64,000 bases of DNA from a virus. The position numbers were made by a program, and so were the translations under genes. The notes under the pieces are model-generated. The model searched no databases, was not told where the DNA came from, and saw only the letters and a list, made by a program, of their open reading frames with translations. Below are positions 15,480 through 30,273 of the stretch, piece by piece (within the stretch, counting starts at the first letter, position 1; each line of letters starts with the position of its first letter). Location of the stretch: IMG/VR virus record IMGVR_UViG_3300025435_001056, positions 1 to 64,000 of that record; one strand, 5' to 3'.

Positions 15480-16535
15480 ATGGCAAAACCATTTGACGTA
15501 TCAAAATTCCGCAAGGACATCACCAAGAGCATCGACGGTCTTAGTATTGGATTTAACGATCCAACAGACTGGATCAGCACAGGCAACTTTGCGTTAAATT
15601 ATTTGATCAGCGGTGACTTTAACAAAGGTATTCCACTGGGCAAGGTAACAGTATTTGCTGGTGAGTCGGGTGCAGGTAAAAGTTATTTCTGCTCGGGCAA
15701 CATTATTAAAAACGCACAAGAGCAGGGTATTTTTGTTATATTGATTGATAGTGAAAACGCACTAGATGAAGATTGGCTTAAAGCATTAGGTGTTGACACT
15801 AGCGATAGTAAATTGCTTAAATTGTCAATGGCCATGATTGATGACGTTGCCAAAACAATCTCAACATTTATGAGCGACTACAAGGCACTACCGGACGGTG
15901 AAAGACCAAAAGTATTGTTTGTAATCGACAGTTTAGGTATGTTGCTGACACCCACAGACGTTAATCAATTTGATGCAGGAGAAATGAAAGGTGATTTGGG
16001 TCGTAAGCCTAAAGCACTTACAGCATTGGTTCGTAACTGTGTAAACATGTTTGGTAGTTATAATGTAGGCCTGGTGTGTACTAACCACACCTATGCTAGT
16101 CAAGACATGTTTGACCCAGATGATAAAATCTCGGGCGGCCAAGGCTTTATCTATGCTAGTAGTATTGTGGTTGCTATGAAGAAAATGAAACTCAAAGAAG
16201 ACGAGGATGGCAACAAGATTACCGATGTTATGGGCATCCGTGCTGGTTGTAAAGTAATGAAAACTCGGTACGCTAAACCGTTTGAAGGTGTACAGGTTAA
16301 GATTCCCTATGAAACAGGTATGAATCCGTACTCGGGCATGGTGGACATGGCTGAAAAACGTGGCCTACTCAAGAAAGAGGGCAATAGTTTGGTATTTGTT
16401 ACCAGCGATGGAGAAGTAATTAAACAGTTCCGTAAAAAATGGGAAGCTAATGAAGCTGGTTGTTTAGACAAACTTATGGCCGACTTTAATAATCAAAAAA
16501 CAATAAGTACTGAAGAAACAGCAACGGAGGAATAA
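15480..16535 (+). CDS. uvsX: RecA-like recombinase UvsX
   Basis: GESGAGKS, IDSENA, VIDSLG, TNHTY, SGGQG. Confidence 0.95.
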   Translation: MAKPFDVSKFRKDITKSIDGLSIGFNDPTDWISTGNFALNYLISGDFNKGIPLGKVTVFAGESGAGKSYFCSGNIIKNAQEQGIFVILIDSENALDEDWLKALGVDTSDSKLLKLSMAMIDDVAKTISTFMSDYKALPDGERPKVLFVIDSLGMLLTPTDVNQFDAGEMKGDLGRKPKALTALVRNCVNMFGSYNVGLVCTNHTYASQDMFDPDDKISGGQGFIYASSIVVAMKKMKLKEDEDGNKITDVMGIRAGCKVMKTRYAKPFEGVQVKIPYETGMNPYSGMVDMAEKRGLLKKEGNSLVFVTSDGEVIKQFRKKWEANEAGCLDKLMADFNNQKTISTEETATEE

Positions 16536-19053: not shown

Positions 19054-20103
19054 ATGTCAACAATCTTAATCAAATGCGGCACTTATCGTAATCAACCTGT
19101 AAACGGAATGATTTTTGAATTGGTCAAAGGATTCCAAACTGGAGCCAAAGGAGGCTATGTGACTGTAAAATCTGCGGGCTATTTTGGTCCAGACCTACCA
19201 GAAGTAGTTCGGATCAATGTCAACGGCATAGAAGATGTAGAATTTACAGCCGAGTCGGTGCCAGCAGGCGAGTTTGTTGCACCCGCCGCTCATGCAAAGG
19301 TACATGTTCATGCTCAGACTCCAGTGGAAACTGACGAACAAGTCATGGCTCGTATTGGCGAACGCTTTGACATTTTAGATCAAATGACCAAGGCCACCAT
19401 TGCCGGTGATGTTAGAGCAATGATTGTGGTTGGCCCTCCTGGTGTAGGCAAATCGTTTGGGGTTGAAAAACAGTTAGAGCATTCGGGACTGTTTGACAAG
19501 CTGAGTGGTCGCCGTGTCAAGTATGAAGTGATCAAAGGTGCCATGACTCCAATTGGTCTCTACTGCACTTTGTATAAGCACAGTGACAAGAATAACGTGA
19601 TTGTGTTTGACGACTGTGACTCGGTGTTCCAGGATGACTTGAGCTTGAACATTCTCAAGGCCGCACTGGATTCTGGCAAAAAACGTCGTATCTACTGGAA
19701 CAGTGACTCGGCCATGTTGCGTCGTGAAGGTGTTCCTGACATGTTTGATTTCAAAGGTTCCTGTATCTTTATCACCAACTTGCAGTTCCAGAATCTCAAG
19801 AGCAAGAAGTTGCAAGACCACTTGGAAGCCCTACAAAGTCGTTGTCACTTTATTGACTTGACGCTTAACACCCTACGTGATCGTTTTTTGCGTATCAAGC
19901 AGATTTACCTCAAAGGTGAACTGTTTGCAGACTACGACTTTAGTCAAGAGCAAGGTGATGAGGTTATTGCATTCATGGAAACCAACCAAAATCGCCTGCG
20001 TGAGATCAGCCTGCGTATGGCGCTCAAGATCGCAGACTTGACCAAAGTATCAGCTGAAAACTGGAAGGCCCTGGCTGCTACGACCTGTATGAAAAATACT
20101 TAA
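19054..20103 (+). CDS. AAA+ ATPase (early)
   Basis: GPPGVGKS, IVFDDCD, FITN, ALQSRC. Confidence 0.88.
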   Translation: MSTILIKCGTYRNQPVNGMIFELVKGFQTGAKGGYVTVKSAGYFGPDLPEVVRINVNGIEDVEFTAESVPAGEFVAPAAHAKVHVHAQTPVETDEQVMARIGERFDILDQMTKATIAGDVRAMIVVGPPGVGKSFGVEKQLEHSGLFDKLSGRRVKYEVIKGAMTPIGLYCTLYKHSDKNNVIVFDDCDSVFQDDLSLNILKAALDSGKKRRIYWNSDSAMLRREGVPDMFDFKGSCIFITNLQFQNLKSKKLQDHLEALQSRCHFIDLTLNTLRDRFLRIKQIYLKGELFADYDFSQEQGDEVIAFMETNQNRLREISLRMALKIADLTKVSAENWKALAATTCMKNT

Positions 20104-20222: not shown

Positions 20223-21686
20223 ATGCGAACAGCCAGAATCGTAGTACGTGACGAAGTAAACATCAAGATTGAAGGACTTGAACTTGATGCTCGTAGAGCT
20301 TTGGTCGCAGCATTCAAATACGATGTTCCTGGTGCCCGCTACTTGCCGGCGGTGCGTCTTGGACGTTGGGATGGCAAGGTCAGTTACTTTCAACTGGGCG
20401 GTAGCACCTATGTGAATCTCCTGCCAGAGATCATTTCCATATTAGAAAAATTCAACTACGATATCGAACTGGATGATCAAAGAGATTACTCAACTACATT
20501 TGAGTTCGAACAGGTCAGTGAAGACAGTTTCAGCCACATAGCTTGGCCTGCTGGACATCCTATGGCGGGCCAGCCCATGCAGTTACGTGACTATCAGGTC
20601 GAAATCATCAACAACTTCCTGGCCAATCCACAATGCATACAAGAGATTGCCACCGGCGCAGGTAAAACTGTGATCACAGCGGCACTTTCAAATGCAGTAG
20701 CGCCACATGGTCGTACCATCGTGATTGTGCCCAACAAGAGTTTAGTGACGCAGACTGAAAAAGACTATGTGAACATGGAGCAGGATGTGGGCGTTTACTT
20801 TGGCGACCGTAAAGAGTGGGGACGTCAGCACACCATCTGCACTTGGCAGAGTCTCAATGTGCTACTAAAGAACACCAAGTCGGGGGTGGGTGATTGCACC
20901 ATACAGGAGTTCTTAGAGGATGTAGTATGTGTTATTGTAGACGAAGTTCATATGGCCAAGGCCGATGCGTTAAAAACTTTGTTGACCGGAGTAATGAGCC
21001 GTATACCTCTACGTTGGGGACTTACAGGAACCATACCCAAAGAACCATTTGAGTTTCAGGCCTTGCGGTGCAGTCTAGGTCCAGTAATCAATCAACTCAG
21101 TGCTAGCGAACTACAGGATCGCGGCGTGTTGGCACAGTGCCATGTGAACATTGTGCAGTTGGTAGATCATGCAGAATTTGCTAGCTATCAAAGCGAGCTA
21201 AAATTCTTGTTAGAAGAGTCGGGCAGGTTAGATACCATGGCCGAACTGATCAATCGAGTAAACGAAACTGGCAATACTCTGGTCCTAGTGGATCGTATTG
21301 CCGCAGGTCAAGGTTTGATAGAACGCCTAGGCGACAATGCAGTCATGGTATCGGGCGTAACCAAAGCAAAGGCAAGACAGGATGAATATGATGAAGTGGC
21401 CGACGCTACTGGAAAAATTATTGTGGCCACCTATGGTGTTGCTGCTGTTGGTATTAATATACCCCGTATCTTTAATCTTGTTCTTGTGGAACCTGGCAAA
21501 AGTTTTGTCCGGGTCATCCAAAGCATTGGAAGAGGAATACGCAAAGCAGAAGACAAAGACCATGTGCAGATCTGGGACGTGACTTCGACCTGCAAGTTTG
21601 CCAAACGACATCTAACCAAACGCAAACAGTTCTACAAAGAAGCTAAATACAACTTCACACAGGAGAAGTTGGAATGGAAAAAGTAG
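20223..21686 (+). CDS. uvsW: UvsW-like SF2 helicase
   Basis: LRDYQ, ATGAGKT, DEVH, GLTGT, QSIGRGIR. Confidence 0.93.
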   Translation: MRTARIVVRDEVNIKIEGLELDARRALVAAFKYDVPGARYLPAVRLGRWDGKVSYFQLGGSTYVNLLPEIISILEKFNYDIELDDQRDYSTTFEFEQVSEDSFSHIAWPAGHPMAGQPMQLRDYQVEIINNFLANPQCIQEIATGAGKTVITAALSNAVAPHGRTIVIVPNKSLVTQTEKDYVNMEQDVGVYFGDRKEWGRQHTICTWQSLNVLLKNTKSGVGDCTIQEFLEDVVCVIVDEVHMAKADALKTLLTGVMSRIPLRWGLTGTIPKEPFEFQALRCSLGPVINQLSASELQDRGVLAQCHVNIVQLVDHAEFASYQSELKFLLEESGRLDTMAELINRVNETGNTLVLVDRIAAGQGLIERLGDNAVMVSGVTKAKARQDEYDEVADATGKIIVATYGVAAVGINIPRIFNLVLVEPGKSFVRVIQSIGRGIRKAEDKDHVQIWDVTSTCKFAKRHLTKRKQFYKEAKYNFTQEKLEWKK

Positions 21687-22279
21687 TCTTTTTAGAAAAC
21701 AAATACACCAAGTGGTATTTTAATATTATTCGCAACGCAAATCCTACAACTAGCTATGTGGAGAAACATCATATTATTCCAAGATGTATTGGCGGCTCTG
21801 ATCATAGAGAAAACATAGTATCTCTTACAGCACGAGAACATTTTGTTTGCCATTTATTGTTGACTAAAATGACAACCGGCAAAGTCAAACAAGCTATGTG
21901 TTGGGCCGTCGGTAAGTTTGCACAAGTGAATAAAAATCAGCAACGAAATTTCACGTCTTGGGAATATCAAAAAATAAGAGAAAATATTTCGTTTGCCAGA
22001 ACAGGCAAAAAACACAGTGACGAGTCTCGCAAAAAAATGTCCGAAAAAGCAAAAGGCCGAACTCCGTGGAATAAAGGTAAGACGGGCGTTCAAAAACATT
22101 CAGCAGAATCAAATAAAAAACGTTCTGAAACATTAACGGGCAGAATACGAACCGAAGAATTTCGTCAAAAAGTTAGTAACGGTAAAAAAGGACACAAAGC
22201 TGGTATGACCGGAAAAAAACACAGTGAAGAAACTCTACAAAAAATGCGTGATAGTGCATTAAAGCGATACGGCAAATAA
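21674..22279 (+). CDS. HNH homing endonuclease with NUMOD3-like repeats
   Basis: EKHHIIPRCIGG..NIVSLTAREHFVCH; GKKHSxE repeats. Confidence 0.9.
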   Translation: MEKVVFLENKYTKWYFNIIRNANPTTSYVEKHHIIPRCIGGSDHRENIVSLTAREHFVCHLLLTKMTTGKVKQAMCWAVGKFAQVNKNQQRNFTSWEYQKIRENISFARTGKKHSDESRKKMSEKAKGRTPWNKGKTGVQKHSAESNKKRSETLTGRIRTEEFRQKVSNGKKGHKAGMTGKKHSEETLQKMRDSALKRYGK

Positions 22280-22282
22280 CGG

Positions 22283-22310
22283 TTGCAACATATAAAAAAT
22301 GTGTTATAAT
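22283..22310 (+). promoter_or_regulatory. sigma70-type promoter
   Basis: TTGCAA-16-TATAAT with TGn; ATG 6 nt downstream. Confidence 0.65.
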
Positions 22311-22316
22311 AAACTT

Positions 22317-22817
22317 ATGCGAATATTAACACTTGATAACACTCCATTTGATTTGGATCATCTTCCAGAAGAAGTAGATGACATGCGCTTTGCCATATTT
22401 GACAACAGCGATCCTAAAGATCCTGATTATCATTATATTCCGTTAATTTTTTTAGAAAGTTTTACTAGTCCTGCTTTGGTATTACGTATTGGTTTTAATA
22501 TTATACGTATGCCAGTTGATTGGCAAATCTTAATTGGCGAACCTGATCTTGGCGACCTAGAAGTTTTGCCACTCACTGCCATAAACGATCGCGGATTTAA
22601 AGCATTCCAATTCAATCCACTCAGCAGTTTCCGCCCCAGTTTTAATGATATTGAAATTGTAGATGTTTATCAAGAAATAACCTGGTATGCTCCCAAATTG
22701 AAAAATGGTCAAATGCTATGCGTGCCACTAAGCAACCAACCAAAATCAGAGTGTGCATACTTTGTCAAAGATATCAGTCGTAATTGTGAAGTGGTAGATT
22801 ACAACAAGGCCTGGTAG
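22317..22817 (+). CDS. hypothetical protein
   Basis: ORF starting MRILTLDN directly after the promoter. Confidence 0.75.
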   Translation: MRILTLDNTPFDLDHLPEEVDDMRFAIFDNSDPKDPDYHYIPLIFLESFTSPALVLRIGFNIIRMPVDWQILIGEPDLGDLEVLPLTAINDRGFKAFQFNPLSSFRPSFNDIEIVDVYQEITWYAPKLKNGQMLCVPLSNQPKSECAYFVKDISRNCEVVDYNKAW

Positions 22818-23263
22818 TGGATAAACTGCATATTTCAAATGAGATGGCACAGTTGGATCGTAAGAATCGAGCATTTTATGACGAGCTCACTCCCGAAGAA
22901 CGTAAAAAGTTTTCAAACTTTCTCATGATACGTTGGGGCAGTAGTGTACAAGGCAGTGCCGATCTGCAACAGTTCTATTTGATCAGTTGCAATGAACGAC
23001 TCAACAAACACTTTTTCAACATCAATCGCCATCCCAAACTGCAATGGTTATGTGCTACCACAGTGAGTCCCGGACTAGGATCTCACAAACATCATTGGAT
23101 CGCTCCCAAGAAAAAAGAACCAGGTGCAAGTGGTATTCGTAAACAGTTGGCTGAAATATATCCTCATCTTAAAAACGATGAATTAGAATTAATGGCCGAA
23201 ATCAATACTAAAAAAGATATAGACGCTTACCTAAAACAATCGGGTCAAGAAGTTAAGAAATGA
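22817..23263 (+). CDS. clamp loader small subunit-like (T4 gp62-like)
   Basis: F.MIRW.S..N..LN..PKLQW..HWI..KKK pattern, recalled from gp62 homologs. Confidence 0.5.
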   Translation: MDKLHISNEMAQLDRKNRAFYDELTPEERKKFSNFLMIRWGSSVQGSADLQQFYLISCNERLNKHFFNINRHPKLQWLCATTVSPGLGSHKHHWIAPKKKEPGASGIRKQLAEIYPHLKNDELELMAEINTKKDIDAYLKQSGQEVKK

Positions 23264-23934
23264 AATACACCTGCCAGTATTGTCGGAAGGACTTTATCAA
23301 AGAGTCCAGTCTTGCGGTGCATTCGTGCGAACCGCGGCGTCGGCGCCAGGAACAAAATGAACCGGGTGTACGCTTGGGGTTTCATGCCTACATCAAGTTC
23401 TACGAACTCACCCAGGGCAGTGCAAAATTAAAGACCTTTGACGACTTTGCTGACAGCCCTTACTACAAGGCCTTTGTTAAGTTTGGTCGATATTGTGTAG
23501 ATATTCGTGCAATCAATCCAGCACGCTTTGTTGAGTGGGTTTTAAAACAAAACAAAAAAATTGATCACTGGGCTAAAGATTCAGTCTACACCGAATATTT
23601 GACCGACTACTTGCGTGTGGAGAATGTAAATGACGCCTTGGCTCGTGCCATTGAGTTTGGTATTGACTGGGCCGAACGGTCAGGACATCCAGCAGAAGAT
23701 TGCCTACGTTATGGCAACACCAATGCTATGGTGTATGCTGTGACCACAGGTCGTATTAGCCCGTGGATCATTTACAACAGTGAGTCGGGACAGAAGTTTT
23801 TGTCGGAACTGGATGCCACACAGATCGCCATGGTCTGGAGTTACATTGATTCGGACTTTTGGATGCGGAAGTTCAAGGATTACCCTGCAGATCAGGAGTA
23901 TGTCAAAGATATTTTGCAGAAAGCAGGTTGGTAA
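23260..23934 (+). CDS. hypothetical protein with N-terminal Zn finger
   Basis: CQYC..F..L..HxC. Confidence 0.7.
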   Translation: MKYTCQYCRKDFIKESSLAVHSCEPRRRRQEQNEPGVRLGFHAYIKFYELTQGSAKLKTFDDFADSPYYKAFVKFGRYCVDIRAINPARFVEWVLKQNKKIDHWAKDSVYTEYLTDYLRVENVNDALARAIEFGIDWAERSGHPAEDCLRYGNTNAMVYAVTTGRISPWIIYNSESGQKFLSELDATQIAMVWSYIDSDFWMRKFKDYPADQEYVKDILQKAGW

Positions 23935-24512
23935 TGAGCGCAGATATTGATATTGACTTGGCTGATAGAGATCAATTGCTCAAATTGATTCAAGCTACAC
24001 CCGCTAGACAACTGCATCAAGGACAAGTTCGTCGGCACAATAGTGGTGTGTATGTTACAGATATTCCCTGGGATCCTGTCAATGCCTGTTCTGCTATAGA
24101 TTACGAACAGGCAGAGCAACTAGGATATTTTAAAATTGATTTACTGAATATGTCAGTTTATCAGTTAATCAGAGATCCTGAACACTATGAACAAATGCTT
24201 GCCCAGGAACCCAACTGGCCTCGTTTGTGGACCGATACTGACTGGGCACAACAGTTGGTTCACATAGGAAACTATACCGAGCTGTTACAATCAATGAGGC
24301 CCGACTCAATACCAAGAATGGCTGCTTTTATTTCCATCATACGACCCGGCAAGGCACATTTACAAAACAGACCGTGGTCAGAAATATTTGAGTCGGTATG
24401 GGACGGAGATACAAGTCGAGGATTTATATTTAAAAAATCACATGCTATAAGCTACGCTGCATTGGTAGCCTTACATATGAACCTGCTTAGTCCATCCGCC
24501 TTACAAGAGTAA
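23934..24512 (+). CDS. minimal DNA polymerase III alpha (DnaE)-like catalytic core, 192 aa
   Basis: DIDID, HNSGVYV, GYFKIDLL, IRPG, FKKSHAISYA in the canonical order. Confidence 0.8.
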   Translation: MSADIDIDLADRDQLLKLIQATPARQLHQGQVRRHNSGVYVTDIPWDPVNACSAIDYEQAEQLGYFKIDLLNMSVYQLIRDPEHYEQMLAQEPNWPRLWTDTDWAQQLVHIGNYTELLQSMRPDSIPRMAAFISIIRPGKAHLQNRPWSEIFESVWDGDTSRGFIFKKSHAISYAALVALHMNLLSPSALQE

Positions 24513-24864
24513 TACTACGGCGTTTTGACTTTTTGCGACTCATTTCAGTTAGACTACACACAGGCCCGTGTAAGATTTCTAAATCTTTGTTGACAAAGGT
24601 TTTCAGATACGCTTTAAATGGATCCCATTCTGTTTTAAGGAATATGTTGATGGGTATACTGCGATTGCTTTCCCACCACCAGACATTGGCCAATTCCAAG
24701 AATCTGCGTTTGACTTCTAGGTCTTGAATACTACCAAAATCGTACATAGTGGTTATGGTTTCGTCCTGATTTTGTATAATGCCCAAATATTCCGTAGTAG
24801 CATATACACACAAGGTGATAAACGGGTATTTTTCAGCTAGTTGTTCAAAAACATTTTTATCCAT
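24487..24864 (-). CDS. hypothetical late protein
   Basis: 125-aa ORF with minus-strand TAAATA at 24874-24879. Confidence 0.75.
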   Translation of the reverse strand: MDKNVFEQLAEKYPFITLCVYATTEYLGIIQNQDETITTMYDFGSIQDLEVKRRFLELANVWWWESNRSIPINIFLKTEWDPFKAYLKTFVNKDLEILHGPVCSLTEMSRKKSKRRSITLVRRMD

Positions 24865-26116: not shown

Positions 26117-26815
26117 ATGATTAAATCTATTGTTGGTTTTGGCGACAGTTGGATGTATGGCAACGAAATTGGTTCCAATGCACCGGGGGATCCAAATCGG
26201 CTGGCCAACTGTATTTTAGGACAGCTTGGCAAAAAATTAAATTTACCTACAGAAAACTTTGGAAGACCCGGGTCGTCTCTGACCAGCATGTTGTGGGAAT
26301 TTGCCAGATGGGCACAAACTGTCGAAGATTCTGCAAAGCACTTGGTTATTGTAATGTTGACTTATGATGTACGTGAAAGCTGGTGGCCAACCGACCAATC
26401 TCGTAAATTGCCAACAATACCGGGACCATATTATGTCGAGCTCAATGACTACGTAGTTAGTAATACAATTTTGGATTCTATTTGGTCCGAGCTTGTTAAA
26501 TTATATGTGTTAGATAGTAATCATGCTGAGTTGTCGGCCATGCGATATTGGCAGGCTGTAAATTTTCTTGACAGTTATTGTGCCCAACATCAAATACCGC
26601 TATTACAAATAAATGTTGCCAGTCCAACTCGACCAATTAGTGTAACTAGTCTATGCAATTACAAAACAGGAATGGTAGAATTACTGCAACAAGAAGCAGA
26701 TTTCACCAAAAAAATATTACATGCTCCCGGCAAACATCCTAACAGCGCAGGTGCCGAATATTTGGCCAATCTGCTAGTAGAACAAATATACAAACGTAAA
26801 CTTTTAAATGATTGA
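26117..26815 (+). CDS. SGNH/GDSL-like hydrolase or acyltransferase
   Basis: FGDSW..G, NFGRPGSS, C-terminal HPNSAG. Confidence 0.7.
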   Translation: MIKSIVGFGDSWMYGNEIGSNAPGDPNRLANCILGQLGKKLNLPTENFGRPGSSLTSMLWEFARWAQTVEDSAKHLVIVMLTYDVRESWWPTDQSRKLPTIPGPYYVELNDYVVSNTILDSIWSELVKLYVLDSNHAELSAMRYWQAVNFLDSYCAQHQIPLLQINVASPTRPISVTSLCNYKTGMVELLQQEADFTKKILHAPGKHPNSAGAEYLANLLVEQIYKRKLLND

Positions 26816-27767
26816 CATAGTTTCTTTTCTTCCTGTTAAACGTAAACAAACTACCAGTGGTTGGATAAGTTTCAACGCACCTTGTTGTATACATCGTGGT
26901 GACACACAGGATCGAAGACAACGTGGCGGTATCAAACCCGGCAATGACGGGTCTTGGTCATTTCATTGTTTCAACTGTGGCTATACTGCTAGTTTTGTTT
27001 TAGGTCGTACTTTAACATTTAAAGCTCGTCGACTGTTAGAGTGGATGAATATTCCTAAAGAAGAAATTGAGAGAATTAATCTTGAAAGTTTAAAACAACG
27101 ATCTATTGCAGGACTGCTCACAGAACGTCAGGCAGTGGCCAATCAGATACAGGGCATTGATTTTGAAGATCGAGATTTACCAGCAGATACACAGACATTA
27201 AATGAACAGGCCAAACAGTATCTTCGTGATAGATGCATAGCCTTGGACTATCCATTTTTGTACAAGACCATGCCACGTCCTGGCATTGTGATTCCGTTTA
27301 CCTATGACAATCAAGTGGTAGGACATACTACTCGTTTTTTAGATGATCGTATACCACGATATATTCAAGACATACAGTCGGGATATGTGTTTGGAACAGA
27401 CCTACAAAAACCAACATGGCAGTCGGTCCTGGTCATGGAAGGTGTATTGGATGCACTCAGTGTCAATGGGCTAGCAGTGCTACACGCAGAAATTAACGAT
27501 GCACAAGTGCGACTAATTCGTAGTCTGGGTCGAGAAGTGATTGTGGTCCCAGATCAAGATGAAGCCGGTATGCGCTTGGTGGATCGTGCAGTGGAATTAG
27601 GATGGAGTGTAAGCATGCCCGAGTGGCCGGTGGGTGTCAAGGATGTAAATGATGCAGTAATTCGTTGGGGACGATTGGCCACATTGCTAAGTATTGTGCA
27701 AGCCCAAGAAACTAGTAAGATTAAAATAGAACTAAGGAAAAAACAACTTGTTAAAAGATTACGGTAA
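26808..27767 (+). CDS. DNA primase (T4 gp61-like)
   Basis: Zn domain HCFNC; TOPRIM EGVLDA, PDQDEAG, KDVND. Confidence 0.9.
   Translation: MIDIVSFLPVKRKQTTSGWISFNAPCCIHRGDTQDRRQRGGIKPGNDGSWSFHCFNCGYTASFVLGRTLTFKARRLLEWMNIPKEEIERINLESLKQRSIAGLLTERQAVANQIQGIDFEDRDLPADTQTLNEQAKQYLRDRCIALDYPFLYKTMPRPGIVIPFTYDNQVVGHTTRFLDDRIPRYIQDIQSGYVFGTDLQKPTWQSVLVMEGVLDALSVNGLAVLHAEINDAQVRLIRSLGREVIVVPDQDEAGMRLVDRAVELGWSVSMPEWPVGVKDVNDAVIRWGRLATLLSIVQAQETSKIKIELRKKQLVKRLR
27748..27764 (+). repeat. 17-nt perfect direct repeat, copy 1
   Basis: TTGTTAAAAGATTACGG, also at 28870-28886. Confidence 0.9.
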
Positions 27768-28857
27768 TTGGTGCCCCGACATTTATCACAATTTATTTGT
27801 TGACCGTCATAATAGCGATTCGATACGAATTGCGCCGTGCTGTGCTTCACAGGCCGCTATTGAACAAATTAATACCTTTAGCTTTGAAAACAATTTGCAT
27901 CTGACTAAATTAAGAAATCAATTTAGAAATAATGAACGCCCGTCAGAATGCCAGGCCTGTTGGGACGCCGAGGATGCTGGTCACCGAAGTCGTCGTCAAC
28001 TTCAAATTGAAGAAAATCCAGCAATTGATAAAATTGATTATGATATAGTACTTACAGGATTAGATCATTCAGCAACCTGGGCGTGTAATCTTGCTTGTAT
28101 CATGTGTGGGCCAATTAATAGTAGTACATGGGGTGCTGAGTTAAAATTAAACAAGGAAGAATTAATAAAATTAGGTAGATATTTGCAAAAAACAAATAAT
28201 TTTGTTGAGGTTCTTGATTTATCAAAGATTACCAAGGTTTATTTCAATGGTGGTGAACCATTATTAAATAATGAACACTTGACTTTAATAGAAATATTAG
28301 ATAAAAAAAATCTTTTAAAAAACGTTTGTCTAAGTTATACTTCCAATGGAACTATTAGTCCTTCACAAAAAGTTAAGGATCTATGGAATAAAGCGCAATC
28401 AGTACAAATATATTTCAGCATTGATGCTACCGAACGGGCATTTAATTATATAAGATGGCCCGCTAACTGGAATATGGTTAATAACAATATAGTAGAATTG
28501 ATAAATTTTTCTAACAACTTAACTGTTGGAATCAATGCAACCGTGGGTAATTATAATGTGTTAGAAGTTATTGATGTGTATAATTGGTTTAATAAAATTT
28601 TACCTGATAGCACTAGGTTGTTTAATTGGCAATTTGCCAATCAACCAAATTACAAACTAGAACATTTGCCAATGGTAGTTAAACATAAAGTGATCAAAGA
28701 ATTAAAAGGCATTGAAAAATTAAACGGAATTGTTAATTATATCAACTCTACCATGGACACCCCGTCAACGAAATTGTGGACACACAATTTTGATCAGATC
28801 GACAATCGCCGAGGAACGAATTGGCGGGAATCTTTAAAAATTGGAAAATATTATTAA
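27748..28857 (+). CDS. radical SAM protein with N-terminal twitch-like domain
   Basis: CNLACIMC, GGEPLL, IAPCC..CQAC; shares its MLKDYG start with the helicase. Confidence 0.9.
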   Translation: MLKDYGNWCPDIYHNLFVDRHNSDSIRIAPCCASQAAIEQINTFSFENNLHLTKLRNQFRNNERPSECQACWDAEDAGHRSRRQLQIEENPAIDKIDYDIVLTGLDHSATWACNLACIMCGPINSSTWGAELKLNKEELIKLGRYLQKTNNFVEVLDLSKITKVYFNGGEPLLNNEHLTLIEILDKKNLLKNVCLSYTSNGTISPSQKVKDLWNKAQSVQIYFSIDATERAFNYIRWPANWNMVNNNIVELINFSNNLTVGINATVGNYNVLEVIDVYNWFNKILPDSTRLFNWQFANQPNYKLEHLPMVVKHKVIKELKGIEKLNGIVNYINSTMDTPSTKLWTHNFDQIDNRRGTNWRESLKIGKYY

Positions 28858-28869
28858 AAAGGATTTATT

Positions 28870-28886
28870 TTGTTAAAAGATTACGG
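28870..28886 (+). repeat. 17-nt perfect direct repeat, copy 2 (helicase start)
   Basis: TTGTTAAAAGATTACGG. Confidence 0.9.
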
Positions 28887-30273
28887 ACTTGAGGTCCAAC
28901 GCCTATTCTTAGAAATGATGTTGCAGGACGCCGAAAGTTATGTGCGTGTACAGAACATCTATAATCCTGAAAACTTTGATAGAAGTTTGCGACCAGCAGC
29001 CGAGTTTATTGCTGAACACAGCAATCAACACAAGACACTACCCACGGTAGAACAGATCAGTGCCAGCACAGGCGTCAAGCTACAGCAGGTTCCAGATCTC
29101 AATGAAGGACACTTTGAATGGTTCATGGCAGAATTTGAACAGTTCACTCGTCGTCAGGAATTAGAACGAGCAATTTTAAAATCAGCAGATCTGTTGGAAA
29201 AAGGCGAGTATGATCCTGTAGAAAAATTAATTAAAGATGCAGTTCAAATCAGTTTAACCAAAGACATGGGTACAGACTACTGGGCGGATCCCAGACAACG
29301 CATCGACAAGTATTTTAATTCAGGTGGGCAGGTATCAACAGGGTGGCCACAGATGGACAAGATTTTATATGGCGGATTTAGTCGTGGTGAATTGAATATT
29401 TTTGCCGGCGGTTCAGGTTCTGGTAAATCCTTGGTCATGATGAACATAGCCCTAAGTTGGTTGCAAGCTGGACTTTCGGGCGTGTATATCAGTTTAGAAC
29501 TTAGCGAAGAACTGTGTGCCTTGAGAACTGATGCCATGTTGGCTGGTATGAGCACAAAGGATATCCGCAAGGATATTGATCAGACTGAACTCAAGGTCAA
29601 GCTGGTTAGCAAGAAAGCTGGACAGTATAGAATCAAAGCCCTACCTGCGCAGAGCAACATCAACGACATTCGTAGTTATATCAAAGAAGTGCAAGTGCAG
29701 ACCGGAATCAAGGTAGACTTTATTATGTGTGACTACCTGGACTTGTTGATGCCTGTCAGTGCCAAAGTCAGTCCCAATGACCTGTTTGTCAAAGACAAGT
29801 ATGTTTCAGAAGAACTGCGCAACCTAGCCAAAGAACTTAATGTGCTGTTTGTCACAGCTAGTCAGTTGAATCGAAGTGCTGTGGAAGAAATTGAGTTTGA
29901 CCATAGTCATATTAGTGGCGGTATCAGTAAGATCAATACTGCCGACAATGTGTTTGGTATCTTCACCAGTAGAGCCATGCGTGAACGCGGCAAGTATCAA
30001 ATACAGTGTATGAAGTCGCGTAGCTCCACAGGTGTAGGCATGAAGATTGACTTAGACTATAACATTGAAACTATGCGTATTACAGATCCCGGAGAAGAAG
30101 AACAAGCCGGAGGATTTAAACGTCCGGGTGGCAACTTGCTGGACAGTATCAAGGCCAAGAGTACCATGCTGTCTTCAGAGCCGCAGGCTAAATGTGAAGA
30201 AGTGGGTAAAATCACAGCCGACGTGCAAAGTGCAAAACTAAAACAGTTATTAGGTCAAATTAAAACAACGTGA
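28870..30273 (+). CDS. DnaB-like replicative helicase (T4 gp41-like)
   Basis: GGSGSGKS, SLEL, DYLDL, TASQLNR, KSR. Confidence 0.95.
   Translation: MLKDYGLEVQRLFLEMMLQDAESYVRVQNIYNPENFDRSLRPAAEFIAEHSNQHKTLPTVEQISASTGVKLQQVPDLNEGHFEWFMAEFEQFTRRQELERAILKSADLLEKGEYDPVEKLIKDAVQISLTKDMGTDYWADPRQRIDKYFNSGGQVSTGWPQMDKILYGGFSRGELNIFAGGSGSGKSLVMMNIALSWLQAGLSGVYISLELSEELCALRTDAMLAGMSTKDIRKDIDQTELKVKLVSKKAGQYRIKALPAQSNINDIRSYIKEVQVQTGIKVDFIMCDYLDLLMPVSAKVSPNDLFVKDKYVSEELRNLAKELNVLFVTASQLNRSAVEEIEFDHSHISGGISKINTADNVFGIFTSRAMRERGKYQIQCMKSRSSTGVGMKIDLDYNIETMRITDPGEEEQAGGFKRPGGNLLDSIKAKSTMLSSEPQAKCEEVGKITADVQSAKLKQLLGQIKTT

Follow-up and report, generated by a model that had tools for sequence, protein, structure and literature searches.

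Family C DNA polymerases are otherwise large, bacteria-specific replicases. The locus described here raises the question of what a reading frame of 192 amino acids (aa) that carries the motifs of such an enzyme is doing in a giant phage, and whether it is the whole of a polymerase core or a part of one. The frame lies at 23934-24512 of a 64-kb stretch of viral DNA (the window), which is the start of a 176,632-bp IMG/VR virus record (IMGVR_UViG_3300025435_001056) estimated to be 51% complete. The DNA of the window recurs in freshwater metagenomes, and its source is an uncultured freshwater giant phage. An initial reading made from the letters and translations (the sequence-only reading) took the frame for a minimal polymerase core, perhaps completed by the open reading frames (ORFs) next to it. 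We arrive at a different answer. The frame very probably encodes the C-terminal subunit of a two-gene, stripped-down family C (Pol III alpha/DnaE-like) enzyme, and the N-terminal half is encoded far downstream on the same contig. With somewhat less assurance, we take the overall system to be a two-gene mini Pol III of the T4-related group 2.2 jumbo phages that is accessory to their family B polymerase (PolB). This arrangement was already described computationally in 2021 (see below), and the present phage adds another member.

The 192-Residue Frame and Its Relation to DnaE

The translation is uninterrupted and is joined to that of the gene before it by a TAATG junction, in which the final A of the TAA stop of the upstream ORF (23260-23934) is also the first letter of the polymerase ATG. 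A longer frame is mechanically possible from a TTG at 23859. We prefer the ATG, because 79 of the 79 relatives extracted from IMG/VR have an ATG at the aligned position, followed by an open frame of 186-197 codons. The motifs run in the order found in DnaE: D4-I-D6-I-D8, H35-N-S-G38, K67-I-D69, R137-P-G139 and F166-K-K-S-H170-A-I-S-Y-A175. Thus, the sequence-only reading was right about an intact ORF coupled to its neighbor, and all of the motifs it listed (DIDID, H-x-x-G, K-I-D, RPG and F-x-KSHA-x-x-YA, in that order) are found in the translation.

The resemblance to the palm and fingers of DnaE is far beyond chance. A single-sequence phmmer search of the PDB with the 192-aa ORF gave nothing meaningful. 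We then have the profile built on 81 diverse full-length homologs, reaching down to ~28% identity (alignment A1). Its nine best matches in the PDB are Pol III alpha of E. coli, T. aquaticus and M. tuberculosis (E 2.6e-6 to 9e-5), and they pair KxD with E. coli residues 553-555, RPG with 639-641 and FxKSHxxxYA with 756-765. A profile-profile comparison by hhalign to an alignment of 23 DnaE segments has a probability of 97.2% (E 2.9e-11). Among phage protein families, the ORF matches PHROG 11778, labeled 'DNA polymerase' (E 7.7e-55). The AlphaFold model of the ORF alone, built on A1, has a predicted local distance difference test score (pLDDT) of 96.1 and a predicted template modeling score (pTM) of 0.88. 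The 16 best Foldseek matches to that model are all C-family polymerases. By VIA-align, 184-190 of the 192 residues align with C-family polymerases at Z 6.1-9.8, the targets being PolC (3f2b, residues 970-1296, Z 9.8), Taq alpha (460-841), E. coli alpha (2hnh, 399-782, Z 8.2) and M. tuberculosis DnaE1 (418-811). The next unrelated match has a Z of 3.6 or less. The identification of DnaE palm and fingers in the sequence-only reading is therefore upheld by profiles, by profile-profile comparison and by the predicted fold, and the model of the ORF by itself, which that reading had proposed as a check, aligns to C-family polymerases only.

The fold match also tells us what has been removed. The 192 residues correspond to E. 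coli alpha 399-782 without the thumb and most of the finger insertions, and so they span about 384 residues' worth of the bacterial protein. Relative to the DnaE segment, ~78 residues are deleted between ORF residues 19 and 33, in the thumb region, and ~70 more are deleted in the fingers between RPG and the KSH helix. The model stops at the equivalent of E. coli residue 782, and there is no clamp-binding, OB or tau-binding part beyond. The sequence-only reading had noted that the PHP, OB and clamp-binding regions and intervening stretches were missing. That is correct, and most of the thumb and the outer fingers are gone as well.

In E. coli alpha, the catalytic residues are D401, D403 and D555, and ribonucleotides are presumably kept out by H760 as a steric gate (PMC8485763). 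H170 of the phage ORF aligns with H760, and K168-S-H170 as a whole aligns with E. coli 758-760. D4, D6, K67, D69 and P138 are invariant in the 81 homologs of A1, and D8, H35, G38, R137, K140, K167, H170 and A175 are conserved in at least 90% of them. The ratio of nonsynonymous to synonymous substitution rates (dN/dS) was taken from relatives at 79-88% identity. Most pairs are synonymously saturated, and the 26 pairs with dS of 0.05-1.5 were used; the median ratio is 0.094 and the highest 0.15, which marks strong purifying selection. Together with the conserved catalytic residues, this indicates a functional gene and not debris. The sequence-only reading had also judged it not to be debris, and two of the things that it said would speak otherwise, nonconservation of the aspartates and neutral evolution, are not seen. 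The same evidence bears on whether the protein could be a catalytically dead relic retained for a structural or regulatory role in the replisome. The extreme reduction of the protein fits that proposal, and no experimental activity is known. We find it scarcely credible, the least probable of the readings considered, given that the three catalytic aspartates and the lysine before the third are invariant over such a range of divergence, that dN/dS is as low as it is, and that the G-x-G-R-G-S motif of the partner described next is invariant too.

A Partner Gene for the Missing Half of the Palm

An active site of the polymerase-beta fold needs a helix and loop with a G[GS] motif preceding the DxD strand. 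The 192-aa ORF begins right at the DxD, and the NTP-binding half of the palm, with its GS motif (G-x-G-R-G-S), is absent from it. In a search of the phage's own contig (G000) with the Pfam family PF07733, there is a single match over the gathering score, at G000:132487-132717 (+) with 28.1 bits. It falls in a 177-aa frame with a likely ATG at 132208, ~108 kb downstream of the 192-aa ORF and on the same strand. As a protein, this N-half scores 28.6 bits against PF07733 (cut-off 23.9) and matches PHROG 11127, also labeled 'DNA polymerase' (E 8e-38). Its C-terminus reads …GVGRGSS…EFLR-stop. The counterpart in DnaE, as seen in metagenomic contigs L087 and L088, reads GPGRGS…ERFLNPER-x4-PDFDIDF. 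This comparison places the split point after the GS helix, in the loop that leads to the DxD strand. Taken in the order N-half and C-half, the genes are colinear with the stretch of DnaE that runs from about residue 277 to 782 in E. coli, and G-x-G-R-G-S is invariant over the N-halves, the fused forms described below and DnaE (alignments A5 and A8). We considered whether the split might have originated with an intein or trans-splicing, and we dropped the idea, as the halves end in …EFLR-stop and begin in MSADIDID with no intein-sized extra sequence.

The description of the 192-aa ORF as a whole core thus has to be given up, since the GS/NTP-binding half of the palm is on a separate gene. The sequence-only reading had itself suggested searching the genome for another polymerase or for split parts, and the own contig holds both: the N-half gene and a T4-type PolB, as an 889-aa frame. 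It had also said that its proposal would fall if the remaining DnaE fragments turned up elsewhere as an ordinary split gene. A fragment does turn up elsewhere, at G000:132187-132720. However, the two halves sum to only ~360 aa, so this is no ordinary split of a full-length dnaE.

The same two modules are occasionally found in a single chain. An exhaustive search of metagenomic cluster representatives gave P0185, a protein of 375 aa in which residues 78-180 match the N-half (40% identity) and residues 190-373 match the 192-aa ORF. PF07733 scores 59.6 bits on it, spanning the N/C junction. P0272 and P0273, both of 376 aa and 78-81% identical to P0185, are two further clusters, and the three come from ENA and Logan. 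Since these clusters show the same fusion, P0185 is no assembly accident. The fused forms have a linker of ~10 residues where the split falls, their modules are in DnaE order, and their C part is ~38-39% identical to the 192-aa ORF. They were aligned with N-halves and DnaE segments in A8, which is correct and is shallow in the C part. MAFFT alignments A2, A3, A4, A6 and A7, which mixed N-halves and C-halves with the fused form, were discarded because the N-halves were misplaced on C-half columns. A model of the fused form matches C-family polymerases at Z 8.8-11.8. Its confident part (residues 80-260) aligns with E. coli alpha 277-558 at Z 10.7 with a root-mean-square deviation of 3.2 Å, and Z exceeds 3 for C-family polymerases only. 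These matches serve only to support colinearity, and not any packing of the halves. The fused forms are known solely from short contigs of 2.4-5.9 kb. None was found among 50,697 phage records or in a scan of IMG/VR, a word-index search for longer (fused) forms found none, and a metagenome scan for the fused form returned two ordinary full-length dnaE genes only.

One metagenomic contig shows another kind of divided dnaE. At L087:6366-10382, one ORF carries the PHP part (382 aa) and another the polymerase part (933 aa), ~70 nt apart. A frameshift, a genuine split or an error of assembly could account for this, and the split point is unlike that of the phage mini Pol III.

By tblastn, homologs of the 192-aa ORF are found at 30-44% identity in 96 phage records. 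All are jumbo phages, and they include the PA5oct group, RaK2, 121Q, GAP32, CBB, Atu_ph07 and Xoo-sp13. In metagenomes, homologs run to thousands: the scored candidates fall into more than 7,900 clusters when grouped at 90% identity, and at 50% identity there are 369 representatives. The N-half and the C-half have the same genus tally in the phage records and occur in the same jumbo phages, where GenBank often labels the N-half 'DNA polymerase III alpha subunit'. Within the clade of the present phage, six IMG/VR records have the halves 92-108 kb apart on the same strand with the C-half first. These six include two complete genomes (337 and 344 kb) with terminal repeats. The IMG/VR records with just one half are all fragments (22-42%). 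The halves are always accompanied by PolB, both in the ~100 cultured jumbo phages and in the related complete metagenomic genomes of 337-344 kb. A PHP domain is found in neither half, nor in the two complete relatives plus one record estimated to be 89% complete. At the nucleotide level, a megablast of positions 19-28 kb against the phage records gave no match. The joint occurrence and the natural fusions indirectly support the reconstitution of one enzyme from the two units.

This evidence can be set against the possibility that the 192-aa protein is self-sufficient, or that any completion comes from the ORFs next to it (22299 and 23260). The ORF does overlap the 23260 gene, and the four-gene block to which both belong is kept in distant relatives. 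We nevertheless consider self-sufficiency or completion by the neighbors very unlikely. The GS-motif half of the palm is missing from the ORF; that half is a dedicated gene of the same genome and co-occurs everywhere; and the natural fusions join exactly the N-half and the C-half. The neighbors, for their part, bear no resemblance to any part of DnaE. Searched against PDB, Pfam and NCBIfam profiles, the three upstream neighbors yielded only an N-terminal zinc finger in the last of them, and those at 22299, 22817 and 23260 have no sequence similarity to any DnaE domain. An Atlas search gave phage-only clusters and nothing else. Accordingly, the completion by ORFs at 22317 and 23260 proposed in the sequence-only reading does not hold, and the missing half is the one found ~108 kb away.

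A further polymerase-like gene was seen in the complete 337-kb relative, in addition to its split mini Pol III. It is a single-chain, PHP-less, DnaE-like gene of 557 aa at L184:1250-2923 (-), equivalent to G001:C1:93749-95422. It scores 132 bits with PF07733, has a match to DNA_pol3_finger, and shows the motifs GSAGSS, PDIDLDF, KIDIL and CRAHA (a variant of KSHA). It is flanked by rubrerythrin-like and aldolase-like genes. Two other near-complete relatives do not have it, nor does the known part of the present phage.

Proposed Activity of the Two-Subunit Enzyme

Iyer, Anantharaman, Krishnan, Burroughs and Aravind (2021, Viruses 13:63, PMC7824862) described, from group 2.2 jumbo phages, a minimal form of Pol III alpha that is specific to phages. 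It is split into an N-terminal NTP-binding protein and a C-terminal Mg2+- and template-binding protein. The genes for the two are distant, a family B polymerase is present too, and the authors suggested that the enzyme is accessory to it. The present system agrees with theirs in having two distant genes, no other Pol III domains, a PolB and a T4-like replication module. It also has the same relatives (PA5oct, RaK2, 121Q, GAP32, CBB and Atu_ph07) and belongs to PHROGs 11778 and 11127. Nothing essential differs. The present copy is at most 44% identical to those of cultured members, and the halves are farther apart in its clade than the ~34-44 kb that separates them in RaK2, CBB and PA5oct. What we add to the prior description is the rare fused forms of 375-376 aa and the zinc-finger gene that overlaps or lies near the polymerase gene across the family. 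A jumbo-phage DNA polymerase made from separately encoded pieces is also reported for the nucleus-forming chimalliviruses, where it is the family B polymerase that is split (bioRxiv 2026, PMC13648687); that is an unrelated polymerase family in another phage group.

Compared with DnaE and PolC of known structure (2hnh, 2hpi, 3e0d, 3f2b and 5lew), the phage halves share the polymerase-beta-like palm with the DxD and the third aspartate, the GS motif, RPG and KSH(A)xxYA in the same order, and they share the fold over E. coli 277-782. They differ in totaling ~360 aa as opposed to 1,160 aa, in being divided after the GS helix and before the DxD strand, and in lacking the PHP, thumb, complete fingers, clamp-binding, OB and tau-binding regions. 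Unlike in other family C cores, the GS motif is not in the same polypeptide as the DxD and is found only on the 177-aa partner.

We propose that the two proteins would assemble into one polymerase-beta-like active site. The N-half would position the triphosphate, and a pair of Mg2+ ions would be bound by D4, D6 and D69. Closure on the incoming deoxynucleoside triphosphate (dNTP) would fall to the RPG and KSH helices, with H170 excluding ribonucleotides, and the enzyme would extend a primer end with deoxynucleotides on a template. We infer templated dNTP addition because the steric-gate histidine and the motifs that contact triphosphate and template are retained. The enzyme is likely distributive because it has no thumb, clamp-binding or OB parts. 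It might then serve beside PolB as a short-patch accessory polymerase in primer extension, gap filling or repair, and it is probably not the main replicase. The zinc-finger protein encoded upstream may help it hold DNA. We lean, if only slightly, toward an accessory DNA polymerase activity for the two-subunit enzyme.

Many other enzymes of the polymerase-beta fold tail ends without a template or make nucleotide products. The pair might likewise be an active nucleotidyltransferase that is not a templated polymerase, carrying out untemplated tailing of DNA or RNA or making a nucleotide product. The loss of the thumb and of most of the DNA-gripping parts of the fingers would suit such an enzyme, as would the presence of a full PolB in the phage. 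A single-sequence search with the N-half also brought up weak matches to poly(A) polymerases (E 0.05-0.3). But those matches are insignificant and lie outside the catalytic motif, RPG and KSH with its steric-gate histidine are strongly constrained, and the significant relatives in sequence and fold are replicative C-family polymerases only. We judge a non-templated transferase to be unlikely.

Several points weigh against a two-gene mini Pol III acting as a polymerase. With no thumb and no clamp contact, processive templated synthesis is doubtful. The 192-aa ORF has no match at all in Pfam, and PF07733 does not score it to the gathering level, whereas the partner and the fused forms pass. Overall confidence in the fused-form model is poor (pLDDT 60.9), and it does not show how the two halves pack. 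Further parts of the enzyme could lie in the unseen half of the contig; this concern is weakened because the two complete relatives have no PHP domain. Finally, a literature search turned up neither biochemical nor genetic tests of the split mini Pol III.

A more elaborate version of the proposal is that of a multi-subunit machine, in which the lost thumb, clamp and OB parts are replaced in trans by the proteins of the block at 22299-23934, above all by the zinc-finger protein. We hold this to be rather improbable. If it is true, the 375-aa fusions would show that ~360 residues suffice for a family C active site. The phage enzyme would then be the smallest core of any replicative-type polymerase, and it could stand as a working model of the bacterial Pol III ancestor. 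Returning to the two-gene mini Pol III itself, a two-piece version of ~360 aa that is conserved and under selection shows how little enzyme the family C core needs. The describers of the split minimal Pol III alpha argued that it is a tractable system for Pol III evolution (PMC7824862). A further question is why T4-like giant phages, which have PolB, retain a second polymerase of bacterial type. For annotation, the name 'minimal DNA polymerase III alpha-like, C-terminal subunit' suits the 192-aa ORF best, and it should be listed as one of a pair with the ~132.2-kb gene and not as a new stand-alone polymerase.

The Surrounding Replication Module

The 192-aa ORF is surrounded by a replication and recombination module of the T4 type (Table 1). 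The order of helicase, small ORFs, 192-aa gene, antisense ORF, primase and DnaB recurs in the annotations of two phages, Ettore of Pseudomonas (PA5oct-like) and CBB of Pectobacterium. Scans for promoters and terminators gave a yield no richer than in shuffled sequence.

Table 1. Features of the mini Pol III locus and of the distant partner gene (positions in the window unless prefixed G000, the phage's own contig).
Position	Strand	Feature	Basis or remark
15480-16535		RecA/UvsX-like protein	context
19054-20103		AAA+ protein	context
20223..21686	+	UvsW-like superfamily 2 (SF2) helicase	ResIII, Helicase_C, UvsW_N
21674-22279		HNH + NUMOD3 homing endonuclease	between the UvsW-like helicase and the four-gene block
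22299..23263	+	two overlapping ORFs, 172 aa and 148 aa	PHROGs 11279, 11758; first of the four-gene block
23260..23934	+	zinc-finger gene, 224 aa	N-terminal C-x2-C-x12-H-x-C, then ~195 aa without recognized fold
23934..24512	+	very probable C-terminal subunit of split minimal Pol III alpha-like enzyme, 192 aa; second palm half and compact fingers	motifs, profiles, AlphaFold model, fold search
23943..23957	+	D4-I-D6-I-D8; D4/D6 correspond to E. coli D401/D403 as the metal ligands of the DxD	aligned with DnaE PDFDIDF
24036..24047	+	H35-N-S-G38, matched to the DnaE H-A-A-G strand	alignments; H35, G38 conserved in at least 90%
24132..24140	+	K67-I-D69, matching E. coli K553-F-D555, with D69 as third catalytic Asp	invariant; aligned
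24342..24350	+	R137-P138-G139 fingers motif, equivalent to E. coli 639-641	P138 invariant, R137 at least 90%; aligned
24429..24458	+	F166-K-K-S-H170-A-I-S-Y-A175 fingers helix, equivalent to E. coli 756-765	K167, H170, A175 conserved in at least 90%
24487..24864	-	convergent ORF, 125 aa	PHROG 11637; 26-nt overlap with polymerase 3' end
26808..27767	+	DnaG-type primase	context
28870..30273	+	DnaB-like replicative helicase	context
G000:132187-132720	+	N-half gene, 177-aa frame	PF07733, PHROG 11127

In the product of the zinc-finger gene, C5, C8, H21 and C23 are invariant, and C2H2 fingers are matched at E 0.004. The gene is present in 93 phage records, with a genus tally nearly that of the polymerase halves. 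It is next to the C-half gene or within ~1 kb of it in PA5oct, 121Q and Atu_ph07, and in Xoo-sp13 it is 10 kb away. Because the adjacency is conserved, we regard the protein as a candidate accessory factor that may be a DNA-binding subunit; a shared distribution among related phages would by itself be a weak argument. In L064 and a few other relatives, ~950 bp separate the zinc-finger and polymerase genes, which suggests an inserted gene.

The two small ORFs that begin the block are kept in relatives and in Ettore and CBB. At the position of the homing endonuclease upstream of them, Ettore has just a small ORF. On the other side of the polymerase gene, the convergent ORF is in the same tail-to-tail overlap in the annotations of Ettore and CBB and is 70-86% identical in relatives. 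A gene for a structural-like protein lies between it and the primase region. Just upstream of the primase gene and overlapping it is a 232-aa ORF (26117-26815), whose starting G-D-S-W block recalls the SGNH/GDSL hydrolases. Between the primase and DnaB, a 369-aa ORF (27748-28857) contains a C-x3-C-x2-C motif (ACNLACIMCG) typical of radical SAM enzymes.

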